The notes below the pieces were generated by a model. That model was given only the letters and a program-made list of their open reading frames with translations, searched no databases and was not told the origin of the DNA. Positions 5,923 through 49,162 of a DNA stretch of 64,000 nt are shown here, one piece after another (position 1 is the stretch's first letter; every line of letters starts with the position of its first letter). The stretch lies in contig CAZVED010000001.1 in the NCBI GenBank assembly GCA_964626205.1, positions 961 through 64,960 on the forward strand, given 5' to 3'. A program made the position numbers and the translations under genes. The DNA is from an uncultured Gammaproteobacteria bacterium (GTDB lineage Bacteria > Patescibacteriota > Patescibacteriia > SG8-24).

Positions 5923-6020
5923 TGTCATTGCGAGTGGGACTGTACTCAGTCCCCGAAGCAATCTTTATTCATGAGGGGAGGGATTGCTTCGGGGTCGAGT
6001 ACGACCCACTCGCAATGACA
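5923..6020. repeat. family-B palindromic element (two inverted arms GTCATTGCGAG..CCGAAGCAATC around a 17-bp core)
   Basis: TGTCATTGCGAGTGGG...CCCCGAAGCAATC / GGATTGCTTCGGGG...CCCACTCGCAATGACA; same arm sequence at 18662, 19031, 19162, 21097 and 21286. Confidence 0.7.
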
Positions 6021-7553: not shown

Positions 7554-7633
7554 AAGCTGGATGCGGGTACCAAAATAAGGCGAAAACGAGGAATAAGCGG
7601 GAGGAAATAGGCTGGATGCGGGTACCAGCTTAA
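7552..7633 (-). repeat. family-A REP/BIME-like element (copy 1, reverse orientation)
   Basis: TTAAGCTGGATGCGGGTACC ... GGAAATAGGCTGGATGCGGGTACCAGCTTAA; reverse complement of the copies at 16551, 26753 and 28189. Confidence 0.8.
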
Positions 7634-7713: not shown

Positions 7714-7850
7714 CCGTTCAGTGAGAGGCCCTTGTCGGGAGTCTCGCAGAACACGAAGTGTGGTCTTTCCAAGTGAATCTCACGATGTCGGCCACGGTGG
7801 TCGATGTCTCAGGTTTTGATGCCTTCGGGCTTTTGCAACGGGAGATAGCA

Positions 7851-13687: not shown

Positions 13688-13762
13688 TTAAGCTGGACAC
13701 GGGTACCGAAATAGGGCGGAAATGAAGAATGGGCGGGAGGAAATAGGCTGGATGCGGGTACA
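13688..13762 (+). repeat. family-A REP/BIME-like element (copy 2, left flank of RAYT)
   Basis: TTAAGCTGGACACGGGTACC-gaaatagggcggaaatgaagaatgggcgggaggaaata-GGCTGGATGCGGGTAC. Confidence 0.8.
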
Positions 13763-14370: not shown

Positions 14371-14452
14371 ATAGGCTGGATGCGGGTACCAGCCTATTTC
14401 CTCCCGCCTATTCTTCATTTCCGCCCTATTTCGGTACCCGTGTCCAGCTTAA
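14371..14452 (-). repeat. family-A REP/BIME-like element (copy 3, right flank of RAYT)
   Basis: GGCTGGATGCGGGTACCAGCC-tatttcctcccgcctattcttcatttccgccctatttc-GGTACCCGTGTCCAGCTTAA; contains the stop codon of the convergent gene 14449..16521. Confidence 0.8.
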
Positions 14453-16550: not shown

Positions 16551-16632
16551 TTAAGCTGGTACCCGCATCCAGCCTATTTCCTCCCGCCTATTCTTCATTT
16601 CCGCCTTATTCCGGTACCCGTGTCCAGCTTAA
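16551..16632 (+). repeat. family-A REP/BIME-like element (copy 4)
   Basis: TTAAGCTGGTACCCGCATCCAGCC-tatttcctcccgcctattcttcatttccgccttattcc-GGTACCCGTGTCCAGCTTAA between two minus-strand genes. Confidence 0.8.
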
Positions 16633-18670: not shown

Positions 18671-18716
18671 TGCGAGGGTCGACGTACTCGTCGGCCCGAA
18701 GCAATCCCGTTGTGGC
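18662..18716 (+). repeat. family-B palindromic arm (single arm)
   Basis: GTCATTGCGAGGGTCGACGTACTCGTCGGCCCGAAGCAATCCCGTTGTGG overlapping the 5' end of gene 16637..18670. Confidence 0.65.
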
Positions 18717-18726
18717 ATGGTGCGCG

Positions 18727-19020
18727 TCATACAGCTTCCTTTTCACGCTCTCGCTCCAACGCCTTCGGGTTGGGGGAGTAGAGTCGGTTCTTGATCTTCC
18801 ACTGGCTCACGAACTGACCGATACCATCCTTGGCGACCTTGGTGCGGACCTTGGGGCGTTCTTGTGACCAGCGCACGAGGCTCTCGAAATTGATCTTGTA
18901 CCGACCGCGCACGACGACGTACGTCAAAGCGCCGTCCGCGATGGCGCGGCGGACGGTCTTGGTGGAAACACCGAAGAGCCTCGATGCTTCAGAGACGGAG
19001 ACACGGATGAGTGAGGACAT
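18727..19020 (-). CDS. small helix-turn-helix DNA-binding protein (excisionase/MerR-like)
   Basis: 97 aa; N-terminal VSEASRLFGVSTKTVRRAIADGAL HTH; flanked by family-B arms at 18662 and 19031. Confidence 0.5.
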   Translation of the reverse strand: MSSLIRVSVSEASRLFGVSTKTVRRAIADGALTYVVVRGRYKINFESLVRWSQERPKVRTKVAKDGIGQFVSQWKIKNRLYSPNPKALEREREKEAV

Positions 19021-19030: not shown

Positions 19031-19200
19031 TGTCATTGCGAGGCCTGAAAGGCCGAAGCAACCCCGTTGAATCAGGAGAAGTATATCACGTTAAACTGAA
19101 TGCTTCATACCACGAAGATCCTTATTTGTCAAGAATAGTGTAGACAAATATCTTGAAATTGGACGGGATTGCTTCGGGCCTAAAGGCCCTCGCAATGACA
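19031..19200. repeat. family-B composite element: two inverted arms flanking a 95-bp AT-rich core
   Basis: TGTCATTGCGAGGCCTGAAAGGCCGAAGCAACCCC (19031-19065) ... GGGATTGCTTCGGGCCTAAAGGCCCTCGCAATGACA (19163-19198); core much lower in GC than its surroundings. Confidence 0.7.
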
Positions 19201-19487: not shown

Positions 19488-20087
19488 ATGCAGAGTCGTT
19501 TAAAAGAAAAGTTCCTGCTCTTCCGCATCCGCGCGAAGAAAGACCCGGACGCATTCGGGGAGGTGTACGACATGTACGTCACCCGCATCTACCGGTTCAT
19601 CTACTTCAAAGTGGCATCGGCTGAGCAGGCCGAGGATCTCACTTCCGAGACCTTCCTCAAAGCGTGGCAGTACCTCATGGAGCGCCGCGACGTGCAGAGC
19701 CTTCAAGCGCTCTTGTACACGGTCGCGAAGAACGTCGTCATCGACCATTACCGGCACACGGCGCGCGAGCGCGGCGACACCGGATTGGACGGCATCGTGG
19801 AAACGATGGGCGATGCGCACAGTGAGAAGCTGCTCAAGGACATCGAGACTCACTTCGATGCCACGCAAGTGCTGGAGAAACTCCGCGGACTCAAAGACGA
19901 GTACCGCGACGTCATCGTCATGAAATACTTTGACGAGCTCAGCACGGGAGAGATCGCAAGCATCCTCGGAAAATCCGCAGCCAACGTCAGGGTCATCCTT
20001 CATCGGGCGACCAAGATGCTCGGCGATGCGGTCCGAGAACATGACCAACAAGAAGCTCGACACAATCCTGGGTCAGATAAAGAATGA
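19488..20087 (+). CDS. ECF-type RNA polymerase sigma factor (sigma-70 family)
   Basis: region 2 (ETFLKAWQYLMERRDVQSLQALLYTVAKNVVIDHYR) and region 4 (YRDVIVMKYFDELSTGEIASILGKSAANVRVILHRATKML). Confidence 0.8.
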   Translation: MQSRLKEKFLLFRIRAKKDPDAFGEVYDMYVTRIYRFIYFKVASAEQAEDLTSETFLKAWQYLMERRDVQSLQALLYTVAKNVVIDHYRHTARERGDTGLDGIVETMGDAHSEKLLKDIETHFDATQVLEKLRGLKDEYRDVIVMKYFDELSTGEIASILGKSAANVRVILHRATKMLGDAVREHDQQEARHNPGSDKE

Positions 20088-21096
20088 ACGGCGAGGCGGT
20101 GCCCCGCACGCTGATTGGGTTTCGCGCAACAAAGAAGTGTTGATGATGCAGGTCCGCAATACGACGGACGCATCCGCGAAGAATCCGATGGGCGTGGTAG
20201 CGAGGCACCTTTTTGCTACCTTCTTCCCGTCCGAGCAACTTTCCATGGCCGCACGCGCGTTCGGCGTGTTTGTGCTTGCCGGTGGCATCGTGCTCTCCGG
20301 CGGTGTCGCGACTGCGCAGCTTTACGGCGACGCGGTCCCGGGCGACCTCGCCTACGGCATGAAGACCGCCATCGAAAAGACGCAGCTTGTTCTCGCACCG
20401 AACGACTCTTATAAGATGCACCTCCTCACGGACTTCTCCGACCGCCGCATGGACGAGATCGCGCGGCTCGCCGAAGGCTCCGGTTCCCAGCAGGCGCTCA
20501 TCCCGGGTGTACTCACGTCGTTCGAGAAGAACGTCATCGCCATGCAGACGAGCATCGAGGGTATGCGCGCCTCCGACCCGGAGAACGTCATCGAGACGGC
20601 CAAGCTCATGGAGCGCAAGATGGTCGTCTACCACAACGCCCTTCGTAAGGCGTCTGCGTCGGTACCATCGGATATCCGCATCCACCTCGCGCTCACGGGT
20701 AACCTCGTCGACGACGGCATGGTCACGGCGCTTGCGATGATCGTCGAAGCGCACTTGGCGGGGAACGAAAGGGCTCCGGGCTCAGTGCTCACTTCCAAGT
20801 TCGAGTCTCGCATCCGGCAGGCCGAAGAAGCGCTTGCCACGGTCGAAGAAGCCGCCGCAGCGCCGGCAACGGCCGCGAACAAACAGAAAGCGCAGCAAGC
20901 CATCGCCGCTGCCAAGGAGCTGGTGCAAAAGGAGGAATACCAGGCCGCGCTCCTCAAGATTGAAGAAATCGCCCAGCTCACAAAAGAAGAGCCGCCGGTC
21001 GAGGAAGAGGTTGTAACGCCCGAAGAACCGGTAACGGAAGCACCGCCCGAAACGTCTACTATAGAAGAGCCCCCCGAGAGTCCACCAGCGGAGTAG
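20041..21096 (+). CDS. membrane-anchored DUF5667-type protein, putative anti-sigma factor (paralogue of 191..1873)
   Basis: cytoplasmic N-terminus, TM (AFGVFVLAGGIVLSGGVATA), GDAVPGDLAYGMKTAIEKTQ motif as in the 191..1873 protein, C-terminal coiled-coil and Pro/Glu-rich tail; start at ATG 20041 overlapping the sigma gene by 47 nt (ORF-track start 19930 is antisense read-through). Confidence 0.6.
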   Translation: MTNKKLDTILGQIKNERRGGAPHADWVSRNKEVLMMQVRNTTDASAKNPMGVVARHLFATFFPSEQLSMAARAFGVFVLAGGIVLSGGVATAQLYGDAVPGDLAYGMKTAIEKTQLVLAPNDSYKMHLLTDFSDRRMDEIARLAEGSGSQQALIPGVLTSFEKNVIAMQTSIEGMRASDPENVIETAKLMERKMVVYHNALRKASASVPSDIRIHLALTGNLVDDGMVTALAMIVEAHLAGNERAPGSVLTSKFESRIRQAEEALATVEEAAAAPATAANKQKAQQAIAAAKELVQKEEYQAALLKIEEIAQLTKEEPPVEEEVVTPEEPVTEAPPETSTIEEPPESPPAE

Positions 21097-21191
21097 TGTC
21101 ATTGCGAGCGGGCCGTACCCGGCCCCGAAGCAATCCCGAACATGAACGGGATTGCCGCGGGCCGACGAGTACGTCGACCCTCGCAATGACA
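21097..21191. repeat. family-B palindromic element (two inverted arms, 9-bp core)
   Basis: TGTCATTGCGAGCGGGCCGTACCCGGCCCCGAAGCAATCCCG-aacatgaac-GGGATTGCCGCGGGCC...CCCTCGCAATGACA, immediately after the stop at 21096. Confidence 0.7.
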
Positions 21192-21285
21192 AAGTAGGGA
21201 AGCCGTCGCCACGCCCACAGTGCCACAGAGTAGGAAAGGTTCCTTCACAATCGAGTCCAGCCCCCACACCGTTTCCCGAGTGATG

Positions 21286-21323
21286 TGTCATTGCGAGGCC
21301 CGAAGGGCCGAAGCAATCCCGTC
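21286..21323 (+). repeat. family-B palindromic arm (single arm)
   Basis: TGTCATTGCGAGGCCCGAAGGGCCGAAGCAATCCCGTC. Confidence 0.6.
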
Positions 21324-21531
21324 GAAGACTCGGAGAACGATGCGGGGTCTGGCGCCCGTATAAAGGACCGATGATGCTTTCGGTCCTCATATGGTCGCTA
21401 TGGCCTGTATATCCAGACTCTCCGCATGCCCACCGAAAGGTCGAATCCACGCAAGTGGATGTGGCATGTTCACACCAAAGGGTTTCCGCAATTTAAGCGG
21501 ACCTCCTACTACTAGAAAAGGAAAATAAGAT

Positions 21532-24500
21532 ATGACAGACGTAATGAAAATGAGCCGGAAGGCCTTTTCGATCGGTGTCGTCGCTCTGACGGTTGCCTGG
21601 TCGATCGGTCTCTCCGCCCTCCTCGCTCCGCTCGCTTCGAGCGCTGCAGTGTCGGGTTCGCTCATCAAGGCTTCCATGCCGGCCGTGTACTACATGGGCT
21701 CGGATGGCAAGCGCTATGTGTTCCCGAACGAAAAGACCTACTTCTCTTGGTACGCGGATTTCTCCGCTGTCCAGGTCATCACGGATTCGGAGCTCGCCTC
21801 CCTTCCGATCGGTGGCAACGTCACGTACCGCCCGGGTGTTCGCATGGTGAAGATCCAGACTGATCCGAAGGTGTACGCAGTTGACTCTCATGGTGTCCTT
21901 CGCTGGATCACCTCTGAGGCGGCAGCTGTCGCTCTCTACGGTTCCGCTTGGAACACCATGGTTCACGATGTCTCGGATGCGTTCTTCACCAACTACACGG
22001 TTGGCGCAGACGTCTCCGGTCCGTCGGACTTCAACCCGGGTGCCGCAACGGCAGCCGCAACATCCATCAACCAGGACAAGAACCTCTCAACGGGTTCTGC
22101 CGCTGGCCTCAGCGTCTCCAAGGCGTCTGACTCCCCGATGGGTGCCACCCTTCCGCTCGGCGCGATGGGTGTCAACTTCGTCAAGTTCAACGTCATGAAC
22201 GGCGGTTCTTCCGCTGCTATGCTCTCCTCGCTCACGGTCATGCGTTCCGGCCCTGGCTATGCCAGCGACTTCGACGCGGTGTACGTGTACCGCGGCTCCG
22301 AGCGTTTGACGACCGGCCGCTCGATCAACTCCTCGTCCAACGAGGCGACGTTCAGCGGTTTGAACCTCTCGATCCCGGCGGGCGGCTCCGTCTCCCTCTG
22401 GATCGCGGGTGACATCTCCACGTCCGCTTTCGCAGGCAACGTGAACGCGCTCTCCGTGAGCAGCGTCATGGTTGGCAGCAGCTCCGTGTCCGGCACGCCG
22501 GTCATGGGCTCTTCCTTCAGCCTCGCAGGTGCAACGGTCGGTGAAATTGACATCGAGCGCACTGGCGGCTCCACCCTTGCCAACATCAAGGCAGGTGGTC
22601 TCGCGCAGCGCGTCGCATCGTTCCGTCTCACGGCCGGCAATCAGGAGGACCTCGATGTCCACTCTGTCGCGCTCACCTTCGGTGGTAACCTGAACCGTGC
22701 TCACCTCTCCAACTTCGTGCTCAAGCAGAGTGGCTCCACGCTCGCGTCGATCCCGTCCATCTCGGACAAGGACCTCGTGACGTTCGCCTTCTCGAGCCCG
22801 ATGTTCATGGAGAAGGGCGCTCAGCGCACCTTCGATGTGTTCGCGGATGTGAACGCAGGCGCTCGCTCCGGCGATGAGGTTGCGTTCTATGTCGATGTCA
22901 ACGCGGATGTCCGCGCCATGGGCCGCACCTACGGCTTCGGTGTGATGACGACCATTGACGCCACGTTCGACGCGTCCACCGATCAGGTGGCAACGGTCGA
23001 AGCAGGCAAGCTCACCACCACCTTCAATGGCCCGGCCTCCAAGGACGTGCTCGCGAACGGCAAGGATGTCGAGCTCTTCAACTTCACGGTCGCGGCTCAG
23101 GCCAACCTGGAGTTCCGCGAGGTCACGCTCGCACTTGACACCAACGGTGGCGACCCTCTCAACACCGTAGTCAGCGACATCAAGATCGTTGACACGGCCA
23201 ATGGTGCTATCGTTGCTGGTCCGACGGATGGCGGCGCAAGCTGCGTCCTCACGGCCAACACGGGTACGTGCGCCTTCTCGGAGACTTGGAACCTCGCGAG
23301 CGGCCAGTCGCGCACCTTCAAGGTGACGGCTGACATCAACTCCGCTGCGAATGGTGATGAAATTCGCGTGACGCTCGGCTCCGGCCAGTTGTTCGCGAAC
23401 AGCAAGGTCCGCAACTTGGACAACAACACCTACCTCGGCGCGTCCGACATGGTTCCGTCCACGGTGCTTGGAGGTAACATCCACACGGTGACCGACTCCG
23501 GTCTCACGGTTGGTAACGCCTCGACACCGGTTGCTCAGACCTACATCAAGGGCTCCTCGGACATCGCGCTCGCAGGCTGGTCCTTCACGGCAGCTGACGC
23601 TGCCCCGGTTCGCTTGAACTCGATCACGGTAGACTGTACCGCTGACGATGACAGCACGGTGAACGAGAAGGACGAGCTGTGCAACAGCGTTGTGCAGACA
23701 GTGAGGCTCATGAACGGTGCGACCCAGGTCGGCGTCACTGCCAGCCCGGATTCGTCCGACAGCATCCGCTTCGACAACCTCAATCTCACCATCAATGGTG
23801 GACAGAGCATGACGCTTGTGCTCATGGGCACGCTCTCCAGCTCTGCTCCGACCACGACCTACCTCGGGTTCGAGATTGAAGATGTTGATGTCACTGATGC
23901 TGACGGTGGTACGGTAAGCGACTCTGGCGTTCCTACGGCCATGAGCGCACTTATGACCGTCGCCGCGCAGGGCTCCGTCACGCTCGTCAACGCCCCAGTT
24001 GATATTGAGTCTGAGCCGAGCCTCGTTATCGGTGGCTCGTCGAACGTCGTGCTCGGTAAGTACCGCATGACCGCTCAGGACGAAGAGCTTCGCCTGTCGA
24101 AGGTGCAGTTCAGCGTCGCTACCCCGGCTGGTATTTCAACGGTGTCGCTCCACGATGGCGCAACGCTCGTTGGCGGTCCGGTCAGTGTGGTTGGCGGCCT
24201 CGCCACCTTCTCTTCGGTGAACTTCGTTGTTCCGAAGGACACGTCCAAGACCCTCACGGTCAAGGCGAACCTCAACACCGTCTCGCCGACCACTTCCGGT
24301 CCGCAGCCGATGGACCCGGTGACCATCACGATGCTTGATGCCAACCTCGAGATCCGCGGAACGTCCGCTGGTTCGGGCACGACCATCGTCTCCGCTGGTA
24401 CGGGCGACCCACTGGCCGGCAACCTCGCGGCCTACGGTAAGTTCATCGTGAAGTCCAAGCCGACGGTTGAAGTCGTGAGCGGTGACAAGGTGCTGGTCAA

Positions 24501-24945
24501 CAGCGCTGCCGCGAACGTCCTCACCCTTACGGTCTCGGCCGACACGGCTGGTCCGGTGGCGTTCCAGACCCTCGAGTTCACGGTGAACGACGACACGAAC
24601 CTCGGTGTCCTCGCCTGCTCGGGCACTGAGTCCAGCGTCTTCACGGCCAGCAACAACCAGGTTGTTGTCGGTAACTGTGACCTCACTGGCTCGTCTCTCA
24701 CCATCGACTTCACCGACGAACAGGTGGTCAACGCAGGAACCGCGAAGTCCTACTACCTCATGCTCAACATCTCGGGCACGGCAGATGGCGACTCGGTCAG
24801 CGTTGTTCTCGAGAGCACTGGCTTCGGCTGGTCTGATTACTCGGCTGTCGGTCACGACACGACGGGTATGACGGGTGCTGACTGGTTCACGGATGGTGAC
24901 TACGTCAAGTACCTTCCGTCCACGGCTCGCACGCTCTCCCGCTAA
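21532..24945 (+). CDS. large secreted surface protein: conserved ~110-aa N-terminal domain (YYxGxDGKRYxFPN...DPKVYAV...LRWI) plus tandem Ig-like beta-sandwich repeats
   Basis: signal peptide; N-terminal domain shared with 25412, 26892 and 28316 genes; more than 900 aa of Thr/Ser/Gly/Val-rich repeats; good RBS (AAAAGGAAAATAAGATATG). Confidence 0.65.
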   Translation: MTDVMKMSRKAFSIGVVALTVAWSIGLSALLAPLASSAAVSGSLIKASMPAVYYMGSDGKRYVFPNEKTYFSWYADFSAVQVITDSELASLPIGGNVTYRPGVRMVKIQTDPKVYAVDSHGVLRWITSEAAAVALYGSAWNTMVHDVSDAFFTNYTVGADVSGPSDFNPGAATAAATSINQDKNLSTGSAAGLSVSKASDSPMGATLPLGAMGVNFVKFNVMNGGSSAAMLSSLTVMRSGPGYASDFDAVYVYRGSERLTTGRSINSSSNEATFSGLNLSIPAGGSVSLWIAGDISTSAFAGNVNALSVSSVMVGSSSVSGTPVMGSSFSLAGATVGEIDIERTGGSTLANIKAGGLAQRVASFRLTAGNQEDLDVHSVALTFGGNLNRAHLSNFVLKQSGSTLASIPSISDKDLVTFAFSSPMFMEKGAQRTFDVFADVNAGARSGDEVAFYVDVNADVRAMGRTYGFGVMTTIDATFDASTDQVATVEAGKLTTTFNGPASKDVLANGKDVELFNFTVAAQANLEFREVTLALDTNGGDPLNTVVSDIKIVDTANGAIVAGPTDGGASCVLTANTGTCAFSETWNLASGQSRTFKVTADINSAANGDEIRVTLGSGQLFANSKVRNLDNNTYLGASDMVPSTVLGGNIHTVTDSGLTVGNASTPVAQTYIKGSSDIALAGWSFTAADAAPVRLNSITVDCTADDDSTVNEKDELCNSVVQTVRLMNGATQVGVTASPDSSDSIRFDNLNLTINGGQSMTLVLMGTLSSSAPTTTYLGFEIEDVDVTDADGGTVSDSGVPTAMSALMTVAAQGSVTLVNAPVDIESEPSLVIGGSSNVVLGKYRMTAQDEELRLSKVQFSVATPAGISTVSLHDGATLVGGPVSVVGGLATFSSVNFVVPKDTSKTLTVKANLNTVSPTTSGPQPMDPVTITMLDANLEIRGTSAGSGTTIVSAGTGDPLAGNLAAYGKFIVKSKPTVEVVSGDKVLVNSAAANVLTLTVSADTAGPVAFQTLEFTVNDDTNLGVLACSGTESSVFTASNNQVVVGNCDLTGSSLTIDFTDEQVVNAGTAKSYYLMLNISGTADGDSVSVVLESTGFGWSDYSAVGHDTTGMTGADWFTDGDYVKYLPSTARTLSR

Positions 24946-25054
24946 TTCCTTTCTCGCCTTGGAGCTCAGGTTCGCCTGAGCTCCGGGCAGAACGGTTTTC
25001 CGGAACGTGCTCCCGCTCGTGTACGAACCGGACAGCAGGAAAGCAAAACAAACA

Positions 25055-25087
25055 CCCCGCCTTTACTGGCGGGGTTTTGTTTTTTGG
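25055..25087 (+). terminator. rho-independent terminator
   Basis: CCCCGCC-tttact-GGCGGGG followed by TTTTGTTTTTT. Confidence 0.6.
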
Positions 25088-25170
25088 GGTCTTGTAGGTT
25101 TTTCGCGCATCACCTAGGTTCCGCATCGCCTCGACATCCAATCTTATTCTTCTGTACACTAACGTCATCT

Positions 25171-25398
25171 ATGAATGAAGATCTCATCATCCAAAAGCTC
25201 ATTGAGCTCGACCATAAGGTCGGCACGCTTGCCACGCAGGGGAGCGTTGACGCGAGGTTTGACGATGTCATGGCGACTCTCGACTCGCACACCGCCATGT
25301 TACAGCGCCTCGACCACGAGCGCGTGTTCACGTTTGAGCGGGTGAAGCGCATCGAAGACGACGTGCGCGGGCTGAAGACGCATTTGGGGGTGGTATGA
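25171..25398 (+). CDS. small (75 aa) coiled-coil hypothetical protein
   Basis: MNEDLIIQKLIELDHKVGTLATQ... heptad-like; starts 14 nt upstream of gene 25412; no antisense gene. Confidence 0.3.
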   Translation: MNEDLIIQKLIELDHKVGTLATQGSVDARFDDVMATLDSHTAMLQRLDHERVFTFERVKRIEDDVRGLKTHLGVV

Positions 25399-25411
25399 CA
25401 AAACCCCGCAG

Positions 25412-26698
25412 GTGCGCTATGCTGTCTCTATCATGTTTTCTATGTGGAAAACCGACGCCTTTCTCGAGACGAGCCTTTCGGTGCTCCAAACGCTCAAGCA
25501 GCAGCTCATCGAGAAGCTGATCATCCTTGCTATCGTCGGTGTCGCCCTCTTCGCGACGCTGGCCTCGGCTGCCGCTGGCGCCCGTTTCGCGTCCGCGGCC
25601 TCTCCGGCGTACGCAGAAGACGCCTCGTTCATGGTTTTGGATAAGACCGTCACAGTCCTCGCTGGGTCCTCGGTCGCTTCGCTCGAAACGTTTGGCGACC
25701 GTTTTACGGTCACACTCGACGAAGGCGACGTGGTGTCATTCCGTATGCCGTCGAACGGCCATTTCGTCAGTCATGGCGCGGCAATCGACACCTGCGAATA
25801 CCGCGAAGGGTCCAACTACCTCACGCTTTCTGAGCCGGGAACGTACACGCTTTCCGTTGACGGACGCATCTGCAACAGCACATACGGCGACGCCGAGGTC
25901 GTCAGCGTTTCCCGTCCGCAGGCAGGTGCGACAGTCACGGCAGGGGAGGAGGTGCTTGTCGTTTGGAGCGCTGCTGGATCGGTCTTCGGTGCGCGTCTCT
26001 CGTTGTCGTTGGACGGCGGCCTGACGTATCCGACGGTCCTTGTCGCCAACACGTTCAGCGCCGACGTGTTCGTATGGACGGTTCCACAGGTGCTCTCGAC
26101 GGACATGGCACGTATCCGTGTCGAAGCGCTCGGCTCGAGCACGGCCGTCGTCGCGGTCGGTGTCAGCGCACCATTCTCCATCGACGGTATCGCACCGCCA
26201 CCGGAACCGGAGCCGCAGCCGGCAACCTGGTACGACGCCGAAGAAGCCACACGCGCCGCGCTTACCATCGGCCATGACCGCGGTATCGTTCCTGGGCAGC
26301 TTCCGTCCGGAACCGTCACCTGCGCTGCGAATGCCCGCATCAAAGGCACGTCATCGAGCGCGGTGTATTACTGCGGCGCGGACGGCAAGCGGTACGCGTT
26401 CCCGAACCAGCGCGTCCATGACTCGTGGTACCTCGGCTTCGAAGGCGTCATCACGCTCACAGATGCAGAGCTTGCCGCTGCCCCGCTTGGTGGAACGGTC
26501 ACGTATCGCCCGGGTGTGCGTTTGGTGAAGATCACGACCGACCCCAAGGTCTACGCCGTTGCCGCGAACGGGGAACTGCGCTGGGTCACGTCGGAAGCGG
26601 TCGCTGTCGCGCTCTATGGAGCAGACTGGGCGACGAAGGTCGACGACATCCCTGACGCATTCTTCACGGACTACCGCATCGGCATACCGATCGAATAG
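25412..26698 (+). CDS. secreted/membrane-anchored protein with the conserved ~110-aa surface-family domain at its C-terminus
   Basis: N-terminal hydrophobic segment LIILAIVGVALFATLASAAAGA; C-terminal YYCGADGKRYAFPNQRVHDSWYLGF...DPKVYAVAANGELRWVTSEAVAVALYG paralogous to the N-terminal domains of 21532, 26892 and 28316 genes. Confidence 0.55.
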   Translation: MRYAVSIMFSMWKTDAFLETSLSVLQTLKQQLIEKLIILAIVGVALFATLASAAAGARFASAASPAYAEDASFMVLDKTVTVLAGSSVASLETFGDRFTVTLDEGDVVSFRMPSNGHFVSHGAAIDTCEYREGSNYLTLSEPGTYTLSVDGRICNSTYGDAEVVSVSRPQAGATVTAGEEVLVVWSAAGSVFGARLSLSLDGGLTYPTVLVANTFSADVFVWTVPQVLSTDMARIRVEALGSSTAVVAVGVSAPFSIDGIAPPPEPEPQPATWYDAEEATRAALTIGHDRGIVPGQLPSGTVTCAANARIKGTSSSAVYYCGADGKRYAFPNQRVHDSWYLGFEGVITLTDAELAAAPLGGTVTYRPGVRLVKITTDPKVYAVAANGELRWVTSEAVAVALYGADWATKVDDIPDAFFTDYRIGIPIE

Positions 26699-26700
26699 CA

Positions 26701-26730
26701 AGGAGCGGCCCGGCCGCTCCTTTTGCTTTT
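26701..26730 (+). terminator. rho-independent terminator
   Basis: GGAGCGGCC-cg-GCCGCTCC then TTTTGCTTTT directly after the stop at 26698. Confidence 0.6.
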
Positions 26731-26752
26731 GGGAGCGACACACCAGGCGGGT

Positions 26753-26832
26753 TTAAGCTGGTACCCGTGTCCAGCCTATTTCCTCCCGCTTATTTCTCGT
26801 TTCCGCCTTATTTCGGTACCCGCATCCAGCTT
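26753..26832 (+). repeat. family-A REP/BIME-like element (copy 5)
   Basis: TTAAGCTGGTACCCGTGTCCAGCC-tatttcctcccgcttatttctcgtttccgccttatttc-GGTACCCGCATCCAGCTTT. Confidence 0.8.
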
Positions 26833-26891
26833 TAGTGGTTGCCATACTGAGCGTTTTTCGGCATGCTGGAGGTCATATAACCCCACGTCGT

Positions 26892-28136
26892 ATGCACGCG
26901 TTTCGTTTTGTCTCGACAACCGCCATCGCCCCGTTCCTTGCCGCAGTCGCGCTCGTCGTCGCTCCGTCGGTACATGCGTTTCCGGTCCTTGTCGAGCAGA
27001 CGCTCGCGCAACAGCCGTCAGAGACGCATCTTTTTGCTGGTATCTCGATCGGCGACCTCGTGAAGCTGCCCGACGACAACGACCCGACGACGACGCAGGA
27101 TTCCGTCGTGTACTACTTCGATCGTGACTGGAAGCGTCGGCCGTTCCCGAACCGGCACGTGTTCGATTCATGGTACGCGGACTTCTCGTCCGTGCGAGAG
27201 GTCACGCCGGAGCAAATGGCAGGGATGCGCCTCGGTCCACCCATCCTGTACCGCCCGGGAACACGCCTCGTGAAGATTCCGTCCATTCCGAAGGTGTACG
27301 CCGTGGAACCCGGCGGTGTGCTGCGCTGGATCACGACAGAGGACGTTGCCATCGCGCTGTATGGCACAGAGTGGTCGAAGCGCGTGGATGACCTTCCGGA
27401 AGCGTTCTTTACCGCGTACACGGAAGGTCCGGCACTGTACGCCGATGCATATCCGACGAGAACGCTTTTGCGTCTCGGCGGCGGCGCCTCGTTCTATGTG
27501 GTGGACGGCGGGACCATTCGGTTCGTCGCACCGCAGGACATGGCGCGATTCCGTTTCCAGACGCGCCACGCCGTTGACACGACCGCGTTGCCGGAAGGGT
27601 ATCCGCTCCTCGGCACGCTCACGGAAAACGGCGAGAACCTGACAGATACGTCGCAGCTGTCGCGTTCCGAAACGCTGCCGGCGGCACAGATCGATTTTCC
27701 GGTCCGTTCGACATCTGTCGAGGCCGGAGCTAATCGCACACTCGCATCGTTCCGTTTGACCGTCGGTGCTACGGTGACGCTTCGCAGGATGGACGTCACG
27801 CTTGCCGGTGCATGGAGCGATGCGACGCCGCTTGTGCGCGGCGTGAGGCTTGTCGACCGCGCGACAGGGGAGACGCTGTTCGGGACGCGCGAATTAGAGT
27901 CGGTCGGTGCTGAGCGTGAGACGGTTCCGTTCACGGGCGCGTTCGGCATTCCGGACGACATGGTCGTGGAAGTCGATCTGCGCGCGGATATCGCCGACGG
28001 ATACGATGGTCGCACGCTGACCGTGCTCTTTGAGCAATCGTCCGCAGAGGTCGTCGATGGGTTGAACGTCGATCGGAAGATGCCGCTTTTGCCGATGCGA
28101 GCGTATCCGGCGCTTACGGTGACGATTGGGGAGTAG
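26892..28136 (+). CDS. secreted protein with N-terminal conserved surface-family domain and C-terminal beta-rich region
   Basis: signal peptide MHAFRFVSTTAIAPFLAAVALVVAPSVHA; VVYYFDRDWKRRPFPNRHVFDSWYADFSSV...PKVYAVEPGGVLRWITTEDVAIALYG; start at ATG 26892, preferred over the ORF-track start 26835. Confidence 0.55.
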   Translation: MHAFRFVSTTAIAPFLAAVALVVAPSVHAFPVLVEQTLAQQPSETHLFAGISIGDLVKLPDDNDPTTTQDSVVYYFDRDWKRRPFPNRHVFDSWYADFSSVREVTPEQMAGMRLGPPILYRPGTRLVKIPSIPKVYAVEPGGVLRWITTEDVAIALYGTEWSKRVDDLPEAFFTAYTEGPALYADAYPTRTLLRLGGGASFYVVDGGTIRFVAPQDMARFRFQTRHAVDTTALPEGYPLLGTLTENGENLTDTSQLSRSETLPAAQIDFPVRSTSVEAGANRTLASFRLTVGATVTLRRMDVTLAGAWSDATPLVRGVRLVDRATGETLFGTRELESVGAERETVPFTGAFGIPDDMVVEVDLRADIADGYDGRTLTVLFEQSSAEVVDGLNVDRKMPLLPMRAYPALTVTIGE

Positions 28137-28188
28137 GCGAGCAATCACGCACGCGAATCAAAACATCGAATCTTCAGGCGTTTTCGTT

Positions 28189-28270
28189 TTAAGCTGGTAC
28201 CCGTGTCCAGCCTATTTCCTCCCGCCCATTTCTCGCTTCCGCCTTATTTCGGTACCCGCATCCAGCTTAA
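28189..28270 (+). repeat. family-A REP/BIME-like element (copy 6)
   Basis: TTAAGCTGGTACCCGTGTCCAGCC-tatttcctcccgcccatttctcgcttccgccttatttc-GGTACCCGCATCCAGCTTAA. Confidence 0.8.
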
Positions 28271-28315
28271 AACCGTGGTATACTGCATGAACGATTCAGT
28301 GTTTTTGTCGTACCC

Positions 28316-31192
28316 ATGCCTATGCCCTCACGCGGCGTTATCGGCCTTGCTACGGTCTTCCTATGGGCCTTTTTCGCGCTTCCTGCCGTTGCTGCGCCGG
28401 TGCCGGGCGACCTCGTGAAGCTATCGGGTGACACCGCCGTCTATTACGTCGGCACGGACGGCAAACGGTACGTCTTTCCGAACGCGGCCACGTATGCCAC
28501 ATGGTATGCGGATTTCTCCGCCGTGAAGACCGTGAGCGCTTCGGAACTTGCAGCGCTACCCATCGGCGGGACGATTGCGTACCGCGCGGGGACGCGCATG
28601 GTGAAGATCGTGAGCGACCCGACGGTGTACATCGTGGAACCTGGCGGCGCGTTGCGTCCGGTACCATCCGAGTCTGTGGCGCGGTCGTTATATGGTGCGA
28701 ACTGGGCGCGACGCGTGGATGATCTTTCGGATGCGTTCTTTTTCGCGTACGAGGTCCGTGAACCGTTCGAGTCCGGCACTTTTCCGAGCGGTACTATCGC
28801 GCGCCGTTCGTCGGACGGCGTGTTGTTTTTCATCGACGGATTGCAGAAGCGGCGTATTACGTCGGACACGGCGCGTACGACCTTGCGCGTGCAAGACGCT
28901 TTCGTGCTGACGGTCTCCGCGACGTCCCTTGAGAAATACGTCGACGGTCCGAACATCACCGGTATCGAGCCGTCATACATCGACACGGCGCAGCGAACGG
29001 CTCGGCCGGATGCACCGGTGTCGCTTCGTCTCGTGCCACCTGTTGGCAACGCGATTCCGTTCCCGGGCGATGCCACGCTCGCCACGCTCCGTATTTCCTC
29101 CGGGCGCGCGGTAACGGTTCGCCGCCTCACCGTGCGACTTACCGCGCTGAAGAATGATCCGTTGAGCCGCGGTATCGCTGACATCGACGACGATGCTGGC
29201 GGCATCGTCTACGGCGACGCGGAGAGCCTGAATCTTTCGGAGCTCCGTTTCGCCTACGCCGACGGTCGCGATGCTACGACGCGTCGGTCGCCGGTGCTCG
29301 ACACGACGCTCGACCAGGCACAGGAGTTCACGTTCACGGATGCGATCTTCGTGCCAGCCGGCGGGAGCGTCGCAGTGCGGCTCATGGCGCGCATGGGACG
29401 GCTCCTGCCGGTGGGGGAGACGTATACGGTTACTATTGTTGCCGCGCAGACGGAGTTTGCGGATGTCGAAAGTGGCGTCAGCGTTCCGGTATTGCCTACA
29501 ACCGATCTCGTGACGCCGACGCTCACCACGGTGCGCGGTGGGCTTGAGGTAACGGCAGCTCCGGTTCCCGGAGGCACGACCGTGGTTCGCGGGGCGTCGC
29601 AAGCGTCGATTGCCGCGTTCGCGCTTCGGGCACCTGCGGGGTCCGATGCCGTGCTGACGCGTCTTACTGTCGTGGGGTACATCAACGAAGGCGAGGGCGG
29701 GAATCGCGACTTCCGTGCCGGTGAGGATACCGACAATACGACGCCGACGACGGTCAATCAGATGGTCCGCGAAGTGTCGCTGTATGACGGTGCAGGAACG
29801 CGTCTTGCTGGGCCTGTGCCAGTGGCGTTCAACGGACGCGCTGAGTTTTCCGGACTCGCATTTCGTGTTGCAGCCGGTCAGTCGGGAACGGTCGTCGTGC
29901 GCGGGGACATGGATGGCAGTGTCGATTTTGAAGAGCGCCCGAACGGCCTTACATTCGATGTCGCAGACGCGGAAACAGATGCGGCGGCCGTCGATGCCGA
30001 GGGTGCCGCGCTACCGGTCATCGGTAAGCTTCCGAACGGTGGCGAACGCCCACGGTATTCCGTCACTGTGTACGAGCAAGGCCGCCTCACGTTCTCTTGG
30101 GAGGGGGAGGAAGACGGTGTCGTGCTCGTCGGTACGGACGCTGATCTTGGCGAACTGACTGTCGCGGCTGAGTACGATTCCTTCCGCCTCACGTCAATGA
30201 GTTTCCGTCTGCAGGATGGCCTCGCAGCACCGCTTCCTTCCGCGCGTCTGACATATACGACGTCTTCCGGCCAGAGCGCGGAAGCTGTGGCCGCGTTCAC
30301 GGGGTCGGTCGTGTGGTTCACTGGTTTGGATATCGTCGTGATACCTGGGTCACCACGCACGTTCCGTCTCTTCGCGTCGGTACCGCTTCCGGGCGGGGGA
30401 ATCGTGACCGGCGATCGTTTGTCGGTGCTGTTCGAACCGGCGGGACCGATGGCGTTCTCGTCCATCACGACCGGCGATACGTTCGGCCCGACGGACGCGC
30501 CGAGCGGAATCTTCCGTGTCGGGACGAACGAGGTAAGCGATGTCGTCGTTCGTTTCACGACGCTCACGCTTCGTGTCGGCTCCGGGTCCCCGAGCGGTAT
30601 CATTCCGCGCTCGGATGCCGCGGAGGTCTTGCGGTTTACGGCGACGGCGGGGCCAACCGGAAACGCGCGCATTTTACAGATGGCCTTCCTCTTGCGTCCG
30701 GGAGACGCCGGCTACGTCTATGAGTTTGGTTATGAGGAGCAGTATGAAGCTGAAGATAACGATGCGCTCGAGCGGTGGGCTGCAAAGAGCGACGGATTCC
30801 TCGATGATGACGACATCGCGAACCTGTACATGTGGGAGGGGGTGAATCCTACGTTGATAGGGGAAGGGCGCGACGGCCGGACGATATTCACTATCGGTGG
30901 AGATACCGATCTTTCCGCGTATACCGTTTCGCGCCCGAACCAGACCGCGACACTCACGTACGAGTTTCCGCTCTCGCAAGCGCTCGTCATTCCGGCAGGA
31001 GCGACACGGACGTTCTCATTCGAGGTGGACACGACCGGATTTGCGAACTGGAACGAATGGCCATTCGGCGTCGAGCTTTTGGGTGCAGAAGCGTTCGTTT
31101 GGACGGATGTCGCGGATGGCGCACCGTCGTTGCTCGATGGTCGCGACGCGCCAGCGCTGCCGCTTCGTCGATCGGTCCGTGTCGCGCGTTGA
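28316..31192 (+). CDS. large secreted surface protein (958 aa) with N-terminal conserved surface-family domain and long beta-rich repeat region
   Basis: signal peptide MPMPSRGVIGLATVFLWAFFALPAVAAP; AVYYVGTDGKRYVFPNAATYATWYADFSAVKTV...DPTVYIVEPGGALRPVPSESVARSLYG. Confidence 0.65.
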   Translation: MPMPSRGVIGLATVFLWAFFALPAVAAPVPGDLVKLSGDTAVYYVGTDGKRYVFPNAATYATWYADFSAVKTVSASELAALPIGGTIAYRAGTRMVKIVSDPTVYIVEPGGALRPVPSESVARSLYGANWARRVDDLSDAFFFAYEVREPFESGTFPSGTIARRSSDGVLFFIDGLQKRRITSDTARTTLRVQDAFVLTVSATSLEKYVDGPNITGIEPSYIDTAQRTARPDAPVSLRLVPPVGNAIPFPGDATLATLRISSGRAVTVRRLTVRLTALKNDPLSRGIADIDDDAGGIVYGDAESLNLSELRFAYADGRDATTRRSPVLDTTLDQAQEFTFTDAIFVPAGGSVAVRLMARMGRLLPVGETYTVTIVAAQTEFADVESGVSVPVLPTTDLVTPTLTTVRGGLEVTAAPVPGGTTVVRGASQASIAAFALRAPAGSDAVLTRLTVVGYINEGEGGNRDFRAGEDTDNTTPTTVNQMVREVSLYDGAGTRLAGPVPVAFNGRAEFSGLAFRVAAGQSGTVVVRGDMDGSVDFEERPNGLTFDVADAETDAAAVDAEGAALPVIGKLPNGGERPRYSVTVYEQGRLTFSWEGEEDGVVLVGTDADLGELTVAAEYDSFRLTSMSFRLQDGLAAPLPSARLTYTTSSGQSAEAVAAFTGSVVWFTGLDIVVIPGSPRTFRLFASVPLPGGGIVTGDRLSVLFEPAGPMAFSSITTGDTFGPTDAPSGIFRVGTNEVSDVVVRFTTLTLRVGSGSPSGIIPRSDAAEVLRFTATAGPTGNARILQMAFLLRPGDAGYVYEFGYEEQYEAEDNDALERWAAKSDGFLDDDDIANLYMWEGVNPTLIGEGRDGRTIFTIGGDTDLSAYTVSRPNQTATLTYEFPLSQALVIPAGATRTFSFEVDTTGFANWNEWPFGVELLGAEAFVWTDVADGAPSLLDGRDAPALPLRRSVRVAR

Positions 31193-31526: not shown

Positions 31527-32333
31527 ATGGAAGGCGTTGAATCCAAAGGAAGGATTGCGGTGATGGGCGTCGGCTACGTCGGGGGAGCGCTTGCGCGGTA
31601 CCTCGACGAAGCCGGTCATTCGCCGCTCCGGTACGACCCGGCGAAGGGGCTCGACGACGCTGGCGTGCTTACGCTCGCGGACGTGGTATTCGTCTGCGTT
31701 CCCACGCCGTATCTCGCGGACGGCACAGGCTTCGATTTGTCGTTCGTTCGCGCGGCCGTCGGCGCGCTTCCGGGGGAGAAGACTGTCGTCATCAAGTCGA
31801 CGGTGTTGCCGGGTACGACAGAGATGCTGCAACAGGAGTTTCCGCAGCACCGAATGCTCTTCAATCCGGAGTTCCTCCGGCAGGTGACGGCAGACGAGGA
31901 CATGCGTCACCCGGATCGCCAGCTCATGGGGTATACGGAACGCTCGAAGGACGTTGCGCCGTTCATTCTGCGCTTGTTGCCGAGCGCGCCGTTCATGCGG
32001 ACGCTCACTGCGACGGAAGCCGAGACGGTGAAGTACTTCGGCAACTGCTTCCTCGCCATGAAGGTCGTCTTTGCGAACCAGATGTTCGACCTGTGCAAGG
32101 CTATCGGTGCCGACTACGACGCGGTGAAGGATTGCGCTGCGGCCGACCCACGCATCGGTACAAGCCACCTGCAAGTCTTGCAGGACGGTTTCCGTGGCTA
32201 CGGCGGTTCGTGTTTCCCGAAGGATGTGAAGTCGTTTGTCCAGTTTGCGGAGTCGCTCGGGACAGACATGACCCTGCTTGCGACTGCCGATCGTATTAAC
32301 GATGAGCTCGTAAAAGATCGGCAACCCGCATGA
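31527..32333 (+). CDS. UDP-glucose/GDP-mannose dehydrogenase-family protein, short form lacking the C-terminal UDP-binding domain
   Basis: Rossmann N-terminus IAVMGVGYVGGALA, catalytic-Cys motif GYGGSCFPKDV; only 268 aa against about 430 for canonical UGDH; stop overlaps next start. Confidence 0.6.
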   Translation: MEGVESKGRIAVMGVGYVGGALARYLDEAGHSPLRYDPAKGLDDAGVLTLADVVFVCVPTPYLADGTGFDLSFVRAAVGALPGEKTVVIKSTVLPGTTEMLQQEFPQHRMLFNPEFLRQVTADEDMRHPDRQLMGYTERSKDVAPFILRLLPSAPFMRTLTATEAETVKYFGNCFLAMKVVFANQMFDLCKAIGADYDAVKDCAAADPRIGTSHLQVLQDGFRGYGGSCFPKDVKSFVQFAESLGTDMTLLATADRINDELVKDRQPA

Positions 32334-34345
32334 GTCGCATGAGCTTTCGTATCAGGACGGGTATCGTTCTCGCGGCGCTCGCCATTCCCGGCGGGCAGGC
32401 TTTTGCCGCACCACGTGCCACGAACGACCCGTTTTTCGAGGAGCAGACCTACCTGCACCACATTGGCGCGCCGGAGGCATGGAATCACAGCCTTGGCTTC
32501 GAGGGCGTTATCGTGGCGGTCATCGATTCGGGCGTCGACATCCGCCACCCCGACCTTCGTGACAACATCTGGCGCAACGTCCGTGAGATTCCCGGCGATG
32601 GTATCGACAACGACGGTAACGGCTACATCGACGACGTGCATGGGTGGGACTTCGTGGACAGTGACAACGATCCGCGCCCGACTCCGTCACCGGGGGACCT
32701 TGTCGGCACGAATCACGGCACAGTGAGCGCCGGTATCATTGCGGCACGCGGCGACAACGGCATTGGAATCTCTGGCGTGACGTGGCAGACGACCATCATG
32801 CCGTTGCGTGCGCTCGGCTCCGACGGTTCTGGCGACCCGACGGCGGTGGTACGCGCCATCGAGTATGCCATGAACAACGGCGCAAAGGTCATCAACCTGA
32901 GTTTCACGGGGCCGGTAGAAGGCGAGACGCTGCGCATCGCCGTACGTCGTGCATACGAGCGCGGCGTGTTCGTTGTTGCGGCAGCGGGGAACGCGCCGGA
33001 GGGCGGCGTCGCTCAGGATCTCGATGCGCGGCCGCTTTTCCCGGTCTGTCTTGATGCGGGCGAGTCGGAGAACTTCATCTATGGCGTTGCGGCCGTGGAT
33101 GCGGAAGATCGCAAAGCATCGTTCTCCAACTATGGCGCGGGATGTGTCGACGGCGCTGCGCCAGGAACACGTTTCATTGGCACGCAGTACTATGATGCCT
33201 CTTCGCCCGCCTTCGCGGATCCGTACGGTGGGTACTACAACGGCACGTCCGTCGCCGCGCCGGTCGTTTCTGGCGTTGCTGCGCTTTTGCTTGCGCTCGA
33301 CTCGAAGCTCACGCCAAAACAGATCACGAATATCCTCACGCAATCCGCCGTCGCTATTGATGAGAAGAACCCGGCATATTTCGGCAAGCTTGGTCGTGGG
33401 CGTATCGACGCGGCAAAGGCGGTCGCGCTTCTCAGGGAGGGGATGCGTGTCATTCCTGCAACTCCGACAGTCCCGACTCAGACGCTCGTTTCGCCGGACG
33501 TAGGCGTATCGCTCGTCGCAACAGCTCCCGGCCCCGGACGCGCTCCAGAGGTGCAGCTCTTCACTGAGGATGGTCTCTACGTGCGCGGATTCTCGGCGTA
33601 TCCTGCAGCGTTTCGCGGCGGCGTTTCCTTGGCCGTCGCGCGTTTTGACGGCCCGCTTCGCCAGACTATCGTCACGGGTGCCGGACCGGGCGGTGGTCCG
33701 CACGTCCGTATTTTCAACGTAAACACGCAGGCTATTGGCGGCTTCATGGCATACGATGAAGCATTCCGTGGTGGCGTCACCGTCGCGACAGCGGATGTCA
33801 TGAACGATGCCGGCGACGAAATCGTTACGGGTGCAGGCCCTGGCGGCGGTCCGCACGTCCGCATTTTCGACGACCATGGTACGCCACTTCGAGGATTCTT
33901 CGCGTTCGAAGAGGCCTTCCGCGGTGGTATCCACGTAGCGGCGGGCGACGTGGATGGCGACGGTGTTGGTGAAGTCATCGTGGCGAGCGGTCGGGGACGA
34001 ACGACTGCGGTACGTGTTTTCCGCGCGGACGGTACGCTGGTGCGCGAGATGCTTCCGTTCGGCGAGCGCGACGTATTTGGCGCGACGGTCGAAGTCGCTG
34101 ATCTCGATGGCGATGGCGATAGGGACCTCATTGTGCGTTCGCTTGCGTCTACAGGAACGGTCCGTTTCCTCCGCGGTGATGGTACTACCATCGATACTGC
34201 ATCCGCTCCGTATCTGCTCGGCAGCCAAGCCGGCTCTCAGCCGCTCGTTGCGTCTTTCAGCGCGCGCGGCATCAGGATCGATTTCGCCGCATACGAACTG
34301 CGGTTCATGGGTGGTGTTCGCGCGGCTCGCGTTTGGCTCGAATAA
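32330..34345 (+). CDS. secreted subtilisin-like (S8) serine peptidase with C-terminal FG-GAP/beta-propeller repeats
   Basis: signal peptide; catalytic triad contexts VIDSGVDIRHPDL (Asp), GTNHGTVSAGIIAA (His), GTSVAAPVVSGVAALLL (Ser); C-terminal repeats FRGGV...TGAGPGGGPHVRIF as in 16637..18670. Confidence 0.75.
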   Translation: MSRMSFRIRTGIVLAALAIPGGQAFAAPRATNDPFFEEQTYLHHIGAPEAWNHSLGFEGVIVAVIDSGVDIRHPDLRDNIWRNVREIPGDGIDNDGNGYIDDVHGWDFVDSDNDPRPTPSPGDLVGTNHGTVSAGIIAARGDNGIGISGVTWQTTIMPLRALGSDGSGDPTAVVRAIEYAMNNGAKVINLSFTGPVEGETLRIAVRRAYERGVFVVAAAGNAPEGGVAQDLDARPLFPVCLDAGESENFIYGVAAVDAEDRKASFSNYGAGCVDGAAPGTRFIGTQYYDASSPAFADPYGGYYNGTSVAAPVVSGVAALLLALDSKLTPKQITNILTQSAVAIDEKNPAYFGKLGRGRIDAAKAVALLREGMRVIPATPTVPTQTLVSPDVGVSLVATAPGPGRAPEVQLFTEDGLYVRGFSAYPAAFRGGVSLAVARFDGPLRQTIVTGAGPGGGPHVRIFNVNTQAIGGFMAYDEAFRGGVTVATADVMNDAGDEIVTGAGPGGGPHVRIFDDHGTPLRGFFAFEEAFRGGIHVAAGDVDGDGVGEVIVASGRGRTTAVRVFRADGTLVREMLPFGERDVFGATVEVADLDGDGDRDLIVRSLASTGTVRFLRGDGTTIDTASAPYLLGSQAGSQPLVASFSARGIRIDFAAYELRFMGGVRAARVWLE

Positions 34346-43505: not shown

Positions 43506-43530
43506 AGAGTTCTCGTAGTGTACCACAGTC

Positions 43531-49159: not shown

Positions 49160-49162
49160 CCT

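Follow-up and report, generated by a model that had tools for sequence, protein, structure and literature searches.

This work suggests that four neighbouring genes on contig CAZVED010000001.1, here called A to D, encode secreted proteins which share an unnamed domain of about 120 amino acids, and that this domain is a Patescibacteria-specific module holding its carriers non-covalently on the cell wall. The genes lie on the + strand between positions 21532 and 31192 of the 64,000-nucleotide stretch of DNA that was analysed as a whole (the window). In the interpretation favoured here, to which we give a probability of about 0.65, the product of gene A is a candidate surface-layer (S-layer) protein, and those of B, C and D are accessory surface proteins. 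Patescibacteria, also known as the Candidate Phyla Radiation (CPR), make up a large part of bacterial diversity; almost none are in culture, and they live attached to other cells, a lifestyle in which their envelope and surface proteins play a central part, although most of these are annotated as 'hypothetical'. A common anchoring or cell-wall-binding module had already been proposed from the letters of this DNA alone (the sequence-only reading), and the proposal is supported by the exchange of the domain with PG_binding_1 and SLH modules in one and the same protein slot, by its placement at either end of its carriers, by its extracytoplasmic partners and by the lack of any other retention signal in A, C and D.

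The shared domain and the modules that take its place

The four genes, with protein lengths and starts as in the public gene calls on the 143,069-bp NCBI contig, are the following:

21532..24945, + strand: gene A, an open reading frame (ORF) of 1137 amino acids; signal peptide, candidate anchor domain, short helical linker, six beta-sandwich repeats
25442..26698, + strand: gene B, 418 amino acids; signal peptide or signal-anchor, Ig-like body (weak Big_7), proline-rich linker, C-terminal domain with Cys...YYC
26892..28136, + strand: gene C, 414 amino acids; signal peptide, domain, segment common with D, one A-type beta-sandwich repeat
28316..31192 (public start 28322), + strand: gene D, 956-958 amino acids; signal peptide, domain, segment common with C, at least four A-type repeats

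Their copies of the domain lie at these positions:

21661-22026, + strand: copy 1, gene A, amino acids ~44-165; located by profile and alignment, and modelled by AlphaFold2 with a predicted local distance difference test score (pLDDT) of 95.5
26357-26695, + strand: copy 2, gene B, the C-terminal variant with the cysteine pair
27102-27449, + strand: copy 3, gene C
28433-28780, + strand: copy 4, gene D

In A, C and D the domain stands behind the signal peptide, and in B it forms the C-terminus, which is the placement that the sequence-only reading had described. Its presence in four + strand genes could be confirmed, since a hidden Markov model (HMM) trained on the four window copies finds exactly four matches in the six-frame translation of the entire window (E 1e-67 to 1e-71, the runner-up being at 0.09), and 41 columns are invariant in the alignment of the four. 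The motif first read from these copies (YY-x-G-x-DGKRY and onwards) is essentially correct, with departures at a few positions in C (DWKRRPFPN and IPKVYAV) and D (DPTVYIV and LRPVPSE), and with WYLGF in B. Pairwise identity is only 48-58% between amino acids and 59-65% between nucleotides; this rules out near-identical assembly duplicates, so that, judged by their sequences, the four copies are old, diverged and genuine paralogues. All four ORFs exist on the + strand as proposed earlier, with one correction to the start of B, which the public calls place at 25442 and not at 25412.

The strongest evidence for wall anchoring comes from a search with the body of A alone (amino acids 190-1137), which recovers A-type proteins as well as full-length homologues with another domain in the N-terminal slot. 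This slot is filled by PG_binding_1 (PF01471, Pfam span at amino acids ~80-155) in P0390-P0393 and P0403-P0405, among which P0391 is annotated as 'peptidoglycan-binding protein' of Candidatus Liptonbacteria, and by SLH (PF00395) in P0398 (amino acids 107-154) and P0400 (three SLH stretches). Amino acids 193-1135 of A align with 169-1137 of P0391 at E 2e-127, and 206-1093 of A with 305-1234 of the SLH protein P0398 at E 2e-57, so the homology of the bodies starts right behind the anchor slot. By these alignments, three unrelated N-terminal modules, the new domain, PG_binding_1 and SLH, interchange on one conserved body and, since the latter two are known wall binders, the new domain that fills the same slot can itself be read as a wall anchor. 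PG_binding_1 and the new domain are equivalent in position and presumably also in function. Homologues with PG_binding_1 or SLH are encoded in different envelope surroundings, with Wzy_C genes, a class A penicillin-binding protein, ABC-2 exporters and GT2 enzymes. In Firmicutes, S-layer and wall-homeostasis proteins have been described as exchanging their wall-binding domains frequently (10.1101/2025.04.02.646754), and the A body would add a clear case of three unrelated anchors exchanged on a single conserved protein.

The domain itself could be assigned to no characterised family, as the sequence-only reading had stated. In Pfam-A and NCBIfam scans of the whole proteins and of the domain alone no model reaches its cutoff, those for SLH and LysM included. 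For SLH (PF00395) there is no Pfam match at E<=1 with the whole proteins or at E<=10 with the domain alone, and the same search easily detects it in P0398 and P0400. LysM (PF01476), SH3b, CWB2 (PF04122) and choline-binding repeats are absent from the Pfam matches of the proteins and the domain, and PG_binding_1 (PF01471) has no match in the four proteins or the domain. The sole sequence profile matches in the PDB are to antibody heavy chains and nanobodies, a relationship rejected as spurious, the 'AVYYC/AVYY' strand resembling framework 3 of the variable heavy-chain (VH) domain. The N-terminal strand of the domain (e.g., 'SAVYYCGA' at window positions 26357-26380) is thus an annotation trap, drawing sub-threshold PDB matches to VH framework 3.

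AlphaFold2, run with a 124-sequence alignment, gives a confident model of the domain (mean pLDDT 95.5) with a mixed alpha/beta fold of about nine strands, divided into two tandem units of ~55-60 amino acids, each consisting of three strands, a helix, a strand and a helix. The domain could have arisen by internal duplication, as suggested mainly by the secondary structure of this model; the sequence signal is weak, with hhalign giving P 0.0027 over 16 columns between the two halves and with weak reciprocal HMM matches.

The family to which the domain belongs is large. An HMM search run exhaustively over 1.84 billion representatives of protein clusters (at 50% identity) shows at least 5,502 protein clusters bearing the domain (5,502 at E<=1e-3, 2,270 at E<=1e-30), nearly all from Patescibacteria, the named matches being a 'hypothetical protein' of Uhrbacteria, Veblenbacteria, Falkowbacteria or Parcubacteria. 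Many related loci bear the title 'uncultured Gammaproteobacteria', which we consider a mislabel, given that loci of this kind (e.g., L003) share the gene order of the window.

Of the 149 best family representatives, 112 carry the domain at the N-terminus behind a signal peptide, 25 at the C-terminus and seven at both ends. It is this freedom to occupy either terminus that makes an anchor plausible, together with the company the domain keeps: Pfam partners were found in 68 of the 149, and every one is extracytoplasmic (Big_7, fn3, Big_1, Invasin_D3, PQQ_2, Ice_binding, S8, C25, trypsin, M23, DUF3048, LVIVD, Laminin_G_3 and, in one family member, cohesin). They include M23 peptidoglycan hydrolases, several of which bear the domain at the C-terminus. 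Such promiscuity resembles the pattern typical of the surface anchors SLH, CWB2 and LysM. The Cys...YYC pair of gene B recurs in 17 of 31 C-terminal copies, that of B being counted. A motif, I-N-x-D-K-x-L, lies 15-30 residues past the domain in ~45% of the N-terminal copies and precedes the domain in the M23 fusions; in gene A it is found at amino acids 176-184 (window ~22057-22083), within two short helices of the AlphaFold2 model.

Phage relatives were sought by tblastn in 50,697 phage genomes and by a scan of PHROGs, with no significant match, and IMG/VR holds a single contig with the domain, IMGVR_UViG_3300033066_000406. With the phage searches null apart from this contig, there is no evidence of CPR-phage lysins using the module. 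The contig may be a CPR phage or prophage. Its positions 584-2089 encode a 501-amino-acid protein with a signal peptide and the domain, adjoining the gene for a 651-amino-acid protein whose C-terminal segment, read by eye, looks transglycosylase-like.

Bodies of the four proteins and the possible role of A

Behind the domain, protein A is made almost entirely of repeats, recognised by hhalign and in the AlphaFold2 model:

22096..24942, + strand: body of A, six homologous beta-sandwich repeats of ~155 amino acids each (amino acids 189-1137)

The full-length AlphaFold2 model of A (pLDDT 87.7) shows a signal-peptide helix, the anchor candidate at amino acids 44-155 and, after two short helices, a beta region of ~950 residues, and profile-profile comparison with hhalign gives a probability of 84-99% for 13 of the 15 pairs of repeats. 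Foldseek, queried with this body, returns generic Ig/MG-domain chains only (PrgB, alpha-2-macroglobulins, antigen I/II). Homologues of A number 982 at E<=1e-10, and the conserved Patescibacteria family to which A belongs, with proteins of ~1,200 amino acids, spans ~1,130-1,350 amino acids. The best 120 of the 982 are all unnamed or 'hypothetical'; most of them have a coverage of ~100%, and about 100 cover 90% or more of A, with an identity of 31-56%. Like its family, A has a signal peptide, an N-terminal anchor slot, six repeats of ~155 amino acids and a conserved C-terminal W-S-D...LP motif. Direct reading of the C-termini of A, C and D revealed no transmembrane helix and no LPXTG-type sorting signal, each protein ending with its last beta-sandwich repeat. 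Because these three proteins have no other signal for retention, the task of keeping them on the cell would fall to the shared domain.

At the level of sequence, A combines the features looked for in an S-layer protein, namely a signal peptide, a wall-anchor candidate and a multi-domain beta body. Probably it serves as a major structural protein of the cell surface, and as such it is a candidate for an S-layer or sheath, a description that suits it better than the 'adhesin-like' body of the sequence-only reading. The S-layer role in the strict sense is offered as a reasoned hypothesis and not as a result, with chances somewhat short of even. Several related genomes have two A-type paralogues on one contig (P0321/P0339, P0287/P0340, P0147/P0333 and P0310/P0312), and in one pair the locus tags are two apart (AAB554_01020 and AAB554_01030); by analogy, this resembles organisms with alternative S-layer genes.

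D contains the A-type repeat more than once (independent E-value, iE, 1e-23 for one copy) and C a single time (iE 1e-7). An extra segment behind the anchor is common to C and D (E 4e-8). The body of B differs from those of A, C and D and gives a weak Ig-like match to Big_7. The earlier claim that the remainder of each protein is different therefore holds for B, which is distinct, and fails for A, C and D, whose bodies are built from one repeat family. Each of the four proteins has full-length orthologues of its own in other genomes, those of D being ~940-990 amino acids long. A small ORF at 25084-25398 (+), which follows the terminator of A and precedes gene B, has a probable start at 25172 and would encode ~75 amino acids with a heptad-like pattern. 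It has no Pfam match and no counterpart in 80 related loci, may be no real gene and is not counted in the system.

Gene order, upstream elements and repeats

The neighbours of the four genes that recur with them in other genomes are these:

16637..18730, - strand: GHL15 glycoside-hydrolase-like protein with FG-GAP repeats, conserved left flank (Pfam; synteny with L028, L008, L003 and L041)
19488..20087, + strand: sigma-70 factor of the extracytoplasmic function (ECF) type, first gene of the sigma-DUF5667-A cassette (Pfam Sigma70_r2, r4_2, Sigma70_ECF)
19930..21096, + strand: DUF5667 single-pass membrane protein with a Pro/Glu-rich tail (Pfam DUF5667, E 1.9e-9)
32330..34345, + strand: secreted subtilase (S8) with FG-GAP repeats, conserved right flank (Pfam; synteny with L028 and L008)

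The true start of the DUF5667 gene is probably the ATG near 20044, and its product resembles an anti-sigma factor; a literature search gave no paper mentioning this domain. The window thus holds two DUF5667 membrane proteins, the other at 191-1873 (+).

Related loci were collected from one genome per GTDB species, and 80 of the 551 loci obtained were kept. Within 10 kb on either side they carry one copy of the domain in 60 cases, two in 12, three in five and four in three, so that copy number per locus ranges from one to four. The order seen in the window, GHL15/FG-GAP (-), sigma factor, DUF5667 protein, A, B, C, D and S8/FG-GAP, is complete in L028; L008 is without C, and in L003 neither D nor the S8 gene was detected. 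B-type orthologues come next after A in L028, L008, L003 and L039. Of the A-type loci, 37 extend far enough upstream to be judged; an ECF-type sigma factor lies upstream on the same strand in 36 of them, and a detectable DUF5667 gene directly upstream in 31. A could be regulated by the adjacent sigma factor.

Upstream elements, terminators and junction repeats around the four genes were located as follows:

21393..21444, + strand: motif 5' of gene A, GGTCGCTATGGCCTGTATAT ... AAAGGTCGA, conserved in an alignment with the 5' flanking sequence in L028, L008 and L003
25054..25075, + strand: intrinsic-terminator-like hairpin with a T-run, 3' of gene A
26700..26722, + strand: intrinsic-terminator-like hairpin, 3' of gene B
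26755..26832, + strand: dispersed intergenic repeat of ~80 nucleotides at the B/C junction (repeat search)
28191..28268, + strand: dispersed intergenic repeat of ~80 nucleotides at the C/D junction (repeat search)

The upstream motif sits about 90-140 nucleotides before the start codon of A, and its first half (GGTCG...TATAT) occurs nowhere else in the window; from its sequence and position it may be a promoter with a long leader element. It was searched for before B, C and D and not found there. Since A and B each have a strong terminator-like hairpin and the motif does not precede B, C or D, the four genes are neighbours and not one operon. A common promoter of all four is not supported, on the same grounds.

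REP (repetitive extragenic palindromic) elements had been reported at two of the gene junctions. A dispersed intergenic repeat is indeed present at B/C and C/D, the two copies being 89% identical over 98 nucleotides, and a stable palindrome is not: the RNA fold of the repeat has a minimum free energy of -19.8 kcal/mol versus -17.8 for shuffled sequences (z -0.68). The window holds six full or partial copies with a mean column identity of 81%, none of them deep in a confident gene; besides the two at the junctions, these are full copies at 7554-7631 (-) and 16553-16630 (+) and partial ones at 13690-13716 (-) and 14424-14450 (+). In this repeat two GGTACCCGYRTCCAGC units flank three direct C(C)GCYTATTYC sub-repeats, the left unit being inverted near 14424. 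A second repeat family, GTCATTGCGAG...(GC-rich hairpin)...GAAGCAATCCCG, found in both orientations, has eight exact 11-mer cores in the window versus 2.0 expected. Three of these cores lie within 21098-21325, in the 430-nucleotide gap upstream of A, and five elsewhere, at 5924-6019, 18666-18676 and 19032-19199.

The window as a whole, which has a GC content of about 60% and most likely comes from an Uhrbacteria-like member of the Patescibacteria, is an envelope and glycan island, which is consistent with a locus for surface proteins. It encodes Wzz-like and Wzy_C proteins, five glycosyltransferases of the GT4 and GT2 types, PMT_2, UDP-glucose dehydrogenase and epimerases, and also an HtrA-like protease, a PEGA protein, the second DUF5667 protein and a collagen triple-helix (G-X-Y) protein at 7758-9023 (+; Pfam Collagen, E 1.4e-14), whose gene adjoins an O-antigen-ligase-like (Wzy_C) gene. 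RmlB-, RmlD- and RmlA-like genes of the dTDP-rhamnose pathway lie at 48131-51674 among glycosyltransferases and, speculatively, could be the source of a wall-glycan ligand. At 41352-44369 (-) there is an ORF of 1005 amino acids with no Pfam match, overlapping shorter + strand ORFs.

Proposed mechanism, alternatives and known systems

If the anchor interpretation is correct, proteins bearing the domain would be exported via Sec and then held on the cell by the domain, which would bind peptidoglycan or a wall-associated glycan and so play the role that SLH, CWB2, LysM and PG_binding_1 have in other bacteria. Wall binding and the ligand alike are predictions; a secondary wall glycan made nearby is possibly that ligand. 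A would be expressed from the conserved sigma factor-DUF5667-A cassette as a structural surface protein, and B, C and D would be accessory wall-associated proteins using the same anchor. It is tempting to go further and regard the domain as a general non-covalent anchor that defines the wall surface proteome of much of the CPR, a counterpart of SLH and CWB2 binding a lineage-specific secondary glycan, possibly a rhamnose polymer of the flanking Rml/GT/Wzy island, with the cassette encoding the S-layer protein seen by cryo-electron microscopy (cryo-EM) on ultra-small bacteria and with B to D associated with that layer. This wider picture we regard as doubtful. Should the anchor reading prove true, an anchor defined by sequence in thousands of clusters would make the surface proteome readable from genomes, and a concrete family of S-layer candidates would be nominated along with its dedicated sigma and anti-sigma-like regulators. 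A fusion of the domain to green fluorescent protein could then serve as an affinity probe to label or capture Patescibacteria, much as the cell-wall-binding domains of phages do for Gram-positives.

The main rival explanation is that the module faces outwards, as a host-recognition lectin or adhesin tip binding a glycan or the wall of the host, A to D being adhesins of an episymbiont. Patescibacteria are widely inferred to be episymbionts, and Kuroda et al. (PMC10936435), who saw secreted proteins with a peptidoglycan-binding domain (PGBD) near the top of gene expression in three Paceibacteria, proposed such proteins to act in host attachment. A binding site at the N-terminal, far tip of a long Ig-like stalk is typical for Gram-positive adhesins, and the M23, S8 and C25 fusions could attack the host. 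However, A, C and D have no second element that could keep them on the producing cell; moreover, the equivalent slot is taken by SLH, known from the literature to bind the polymers of its own wall. One conserved module, with its 41 invariant columns and 5,502 clusters, spread over what are presumably different hosts also favours a self-ligand, and its many copies per genome on unrelated enzymes resemble the surface proteomes built on SLH or CWB2. We therefore consider recognition of a host unlikely.

A docking function, in which the domain would bind a membrane partner in the manner of dockerin and cohesin (e.g., the extracellular part of DUF5667) or the S-layer lattice, seems more improbable still. 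It would make sense of the DUF5667 gene directly upstream of the A-type gene in 31/37 loci, of the second DUF5667 protein at 191-1873 and of the cohesin domain in one family member. On the other hand, in the 80 loci, genes other than A-type account for most of those with the domain, and many of them have no DUF5667 gene next to them; P0391, the PG_binding_1 homologue, has the same body without an annotated sigma factor or DUF5667 neighbour; and the domains that displace the new one bind wall or glycan and are not docking modules. That the four copies are an artefact of assembly or annotation, or similar merely in composition, can be considered refuted: nothing was found in its favour, and it conflicts with the nucleotide divergence (59-65% identity), with the full-length orthologues of each protein, with synteny in independent assemblies and with the confidence of the fold (pLDDT 95.5).

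Returning to the domain as a wall anchor, its predicted fold has distant counterparts. The top Foldseek matches in the PDB are the periplasmic repeats of EccB1, EccB3 and EccB5, at a weak level (E 0.014-0.05, probability 0.7-0.93, template modelling (TM) score 0.35-0.40). EccB repeats are units of ~55 amino acids with four strands and two helices (PMC4769845), and each half of the modelled domain resembles such a repeat in size and composition. Their fold has been likened to PlyCB, the wall-binding subunit of the phage lysin PlyC, and it was suggested there that the repeats may bind peptidoglycan (PMC4769845); PlyCB itself is not among the recovered matches. EccB differs in having four repeats around a core domain as well as a transmembrane helix, and shares no sequence similarity with the new domain. 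Membership in the EccB family, a component of the type VII secretion system, was rejected, as there is no PDB or Pfam sequence match and the window has no ESX genes. The best structural matches overall, which extend over the whole domain, are two actinophage proteins, A0A1I9SA71 of Rhodococcus phage Weasels2 and A0A345MGB2 of Streptomyces phage LukeCage (E 1e-6, TM score 0.67 and 0.72), which are uncharacterised and only 15-20% identical in sequence.

In usage, the closest parallels are the SLH (PF00395) and CWB2 (PF04122) modules of Gram-positive S-layer proteins, which likewise are terminal modules found on an S-layer-type protein as well as on enzymes and adhesins, in many copies per genome; SLH even takes the place of the new domain at the N-terminus of proteins homologous to the A body. 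Both lack sequence similarity to the new domain, whose two predicted beta3-alpha-beta-alpha units differ from the three-fold helical trimer of SLH. PG_binding_1 precedes the same six-repeat body of ~950 amino acids in 'peptidoglycan-binding proteins' of Liptonbacteria, Wildermuthbacteria and Paceibacteria, and is an unrelated small helical bundle with no HMM match to the new domain, whose predicted fold is mixed alpha/beta. As for A, a survey by structure prediction (SymProFold) reported new S-layer families in Patescibacteria, with candidates of 1,131-1,274 amino acids (10.1101/2024.05.28.596244), and A resembles them, compared by description, in phylum, size class and the succession of signal peptide, anchor and multiple Ig-like domains. 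The high expression of secreted PGBD proteins in Paceibacteria (PMC10936435) lends the S-layer idea indirect support as well, and an apparent S-layer has been seen by cryo-EM on a Nealsonbacteria cell (10.1101/2022.04.20.488981). The A family fits these published descriptions. The domain would fill a known functional niche, anchoring to the wall, and what this work adds to it is a hitherto unnamed family of domains.

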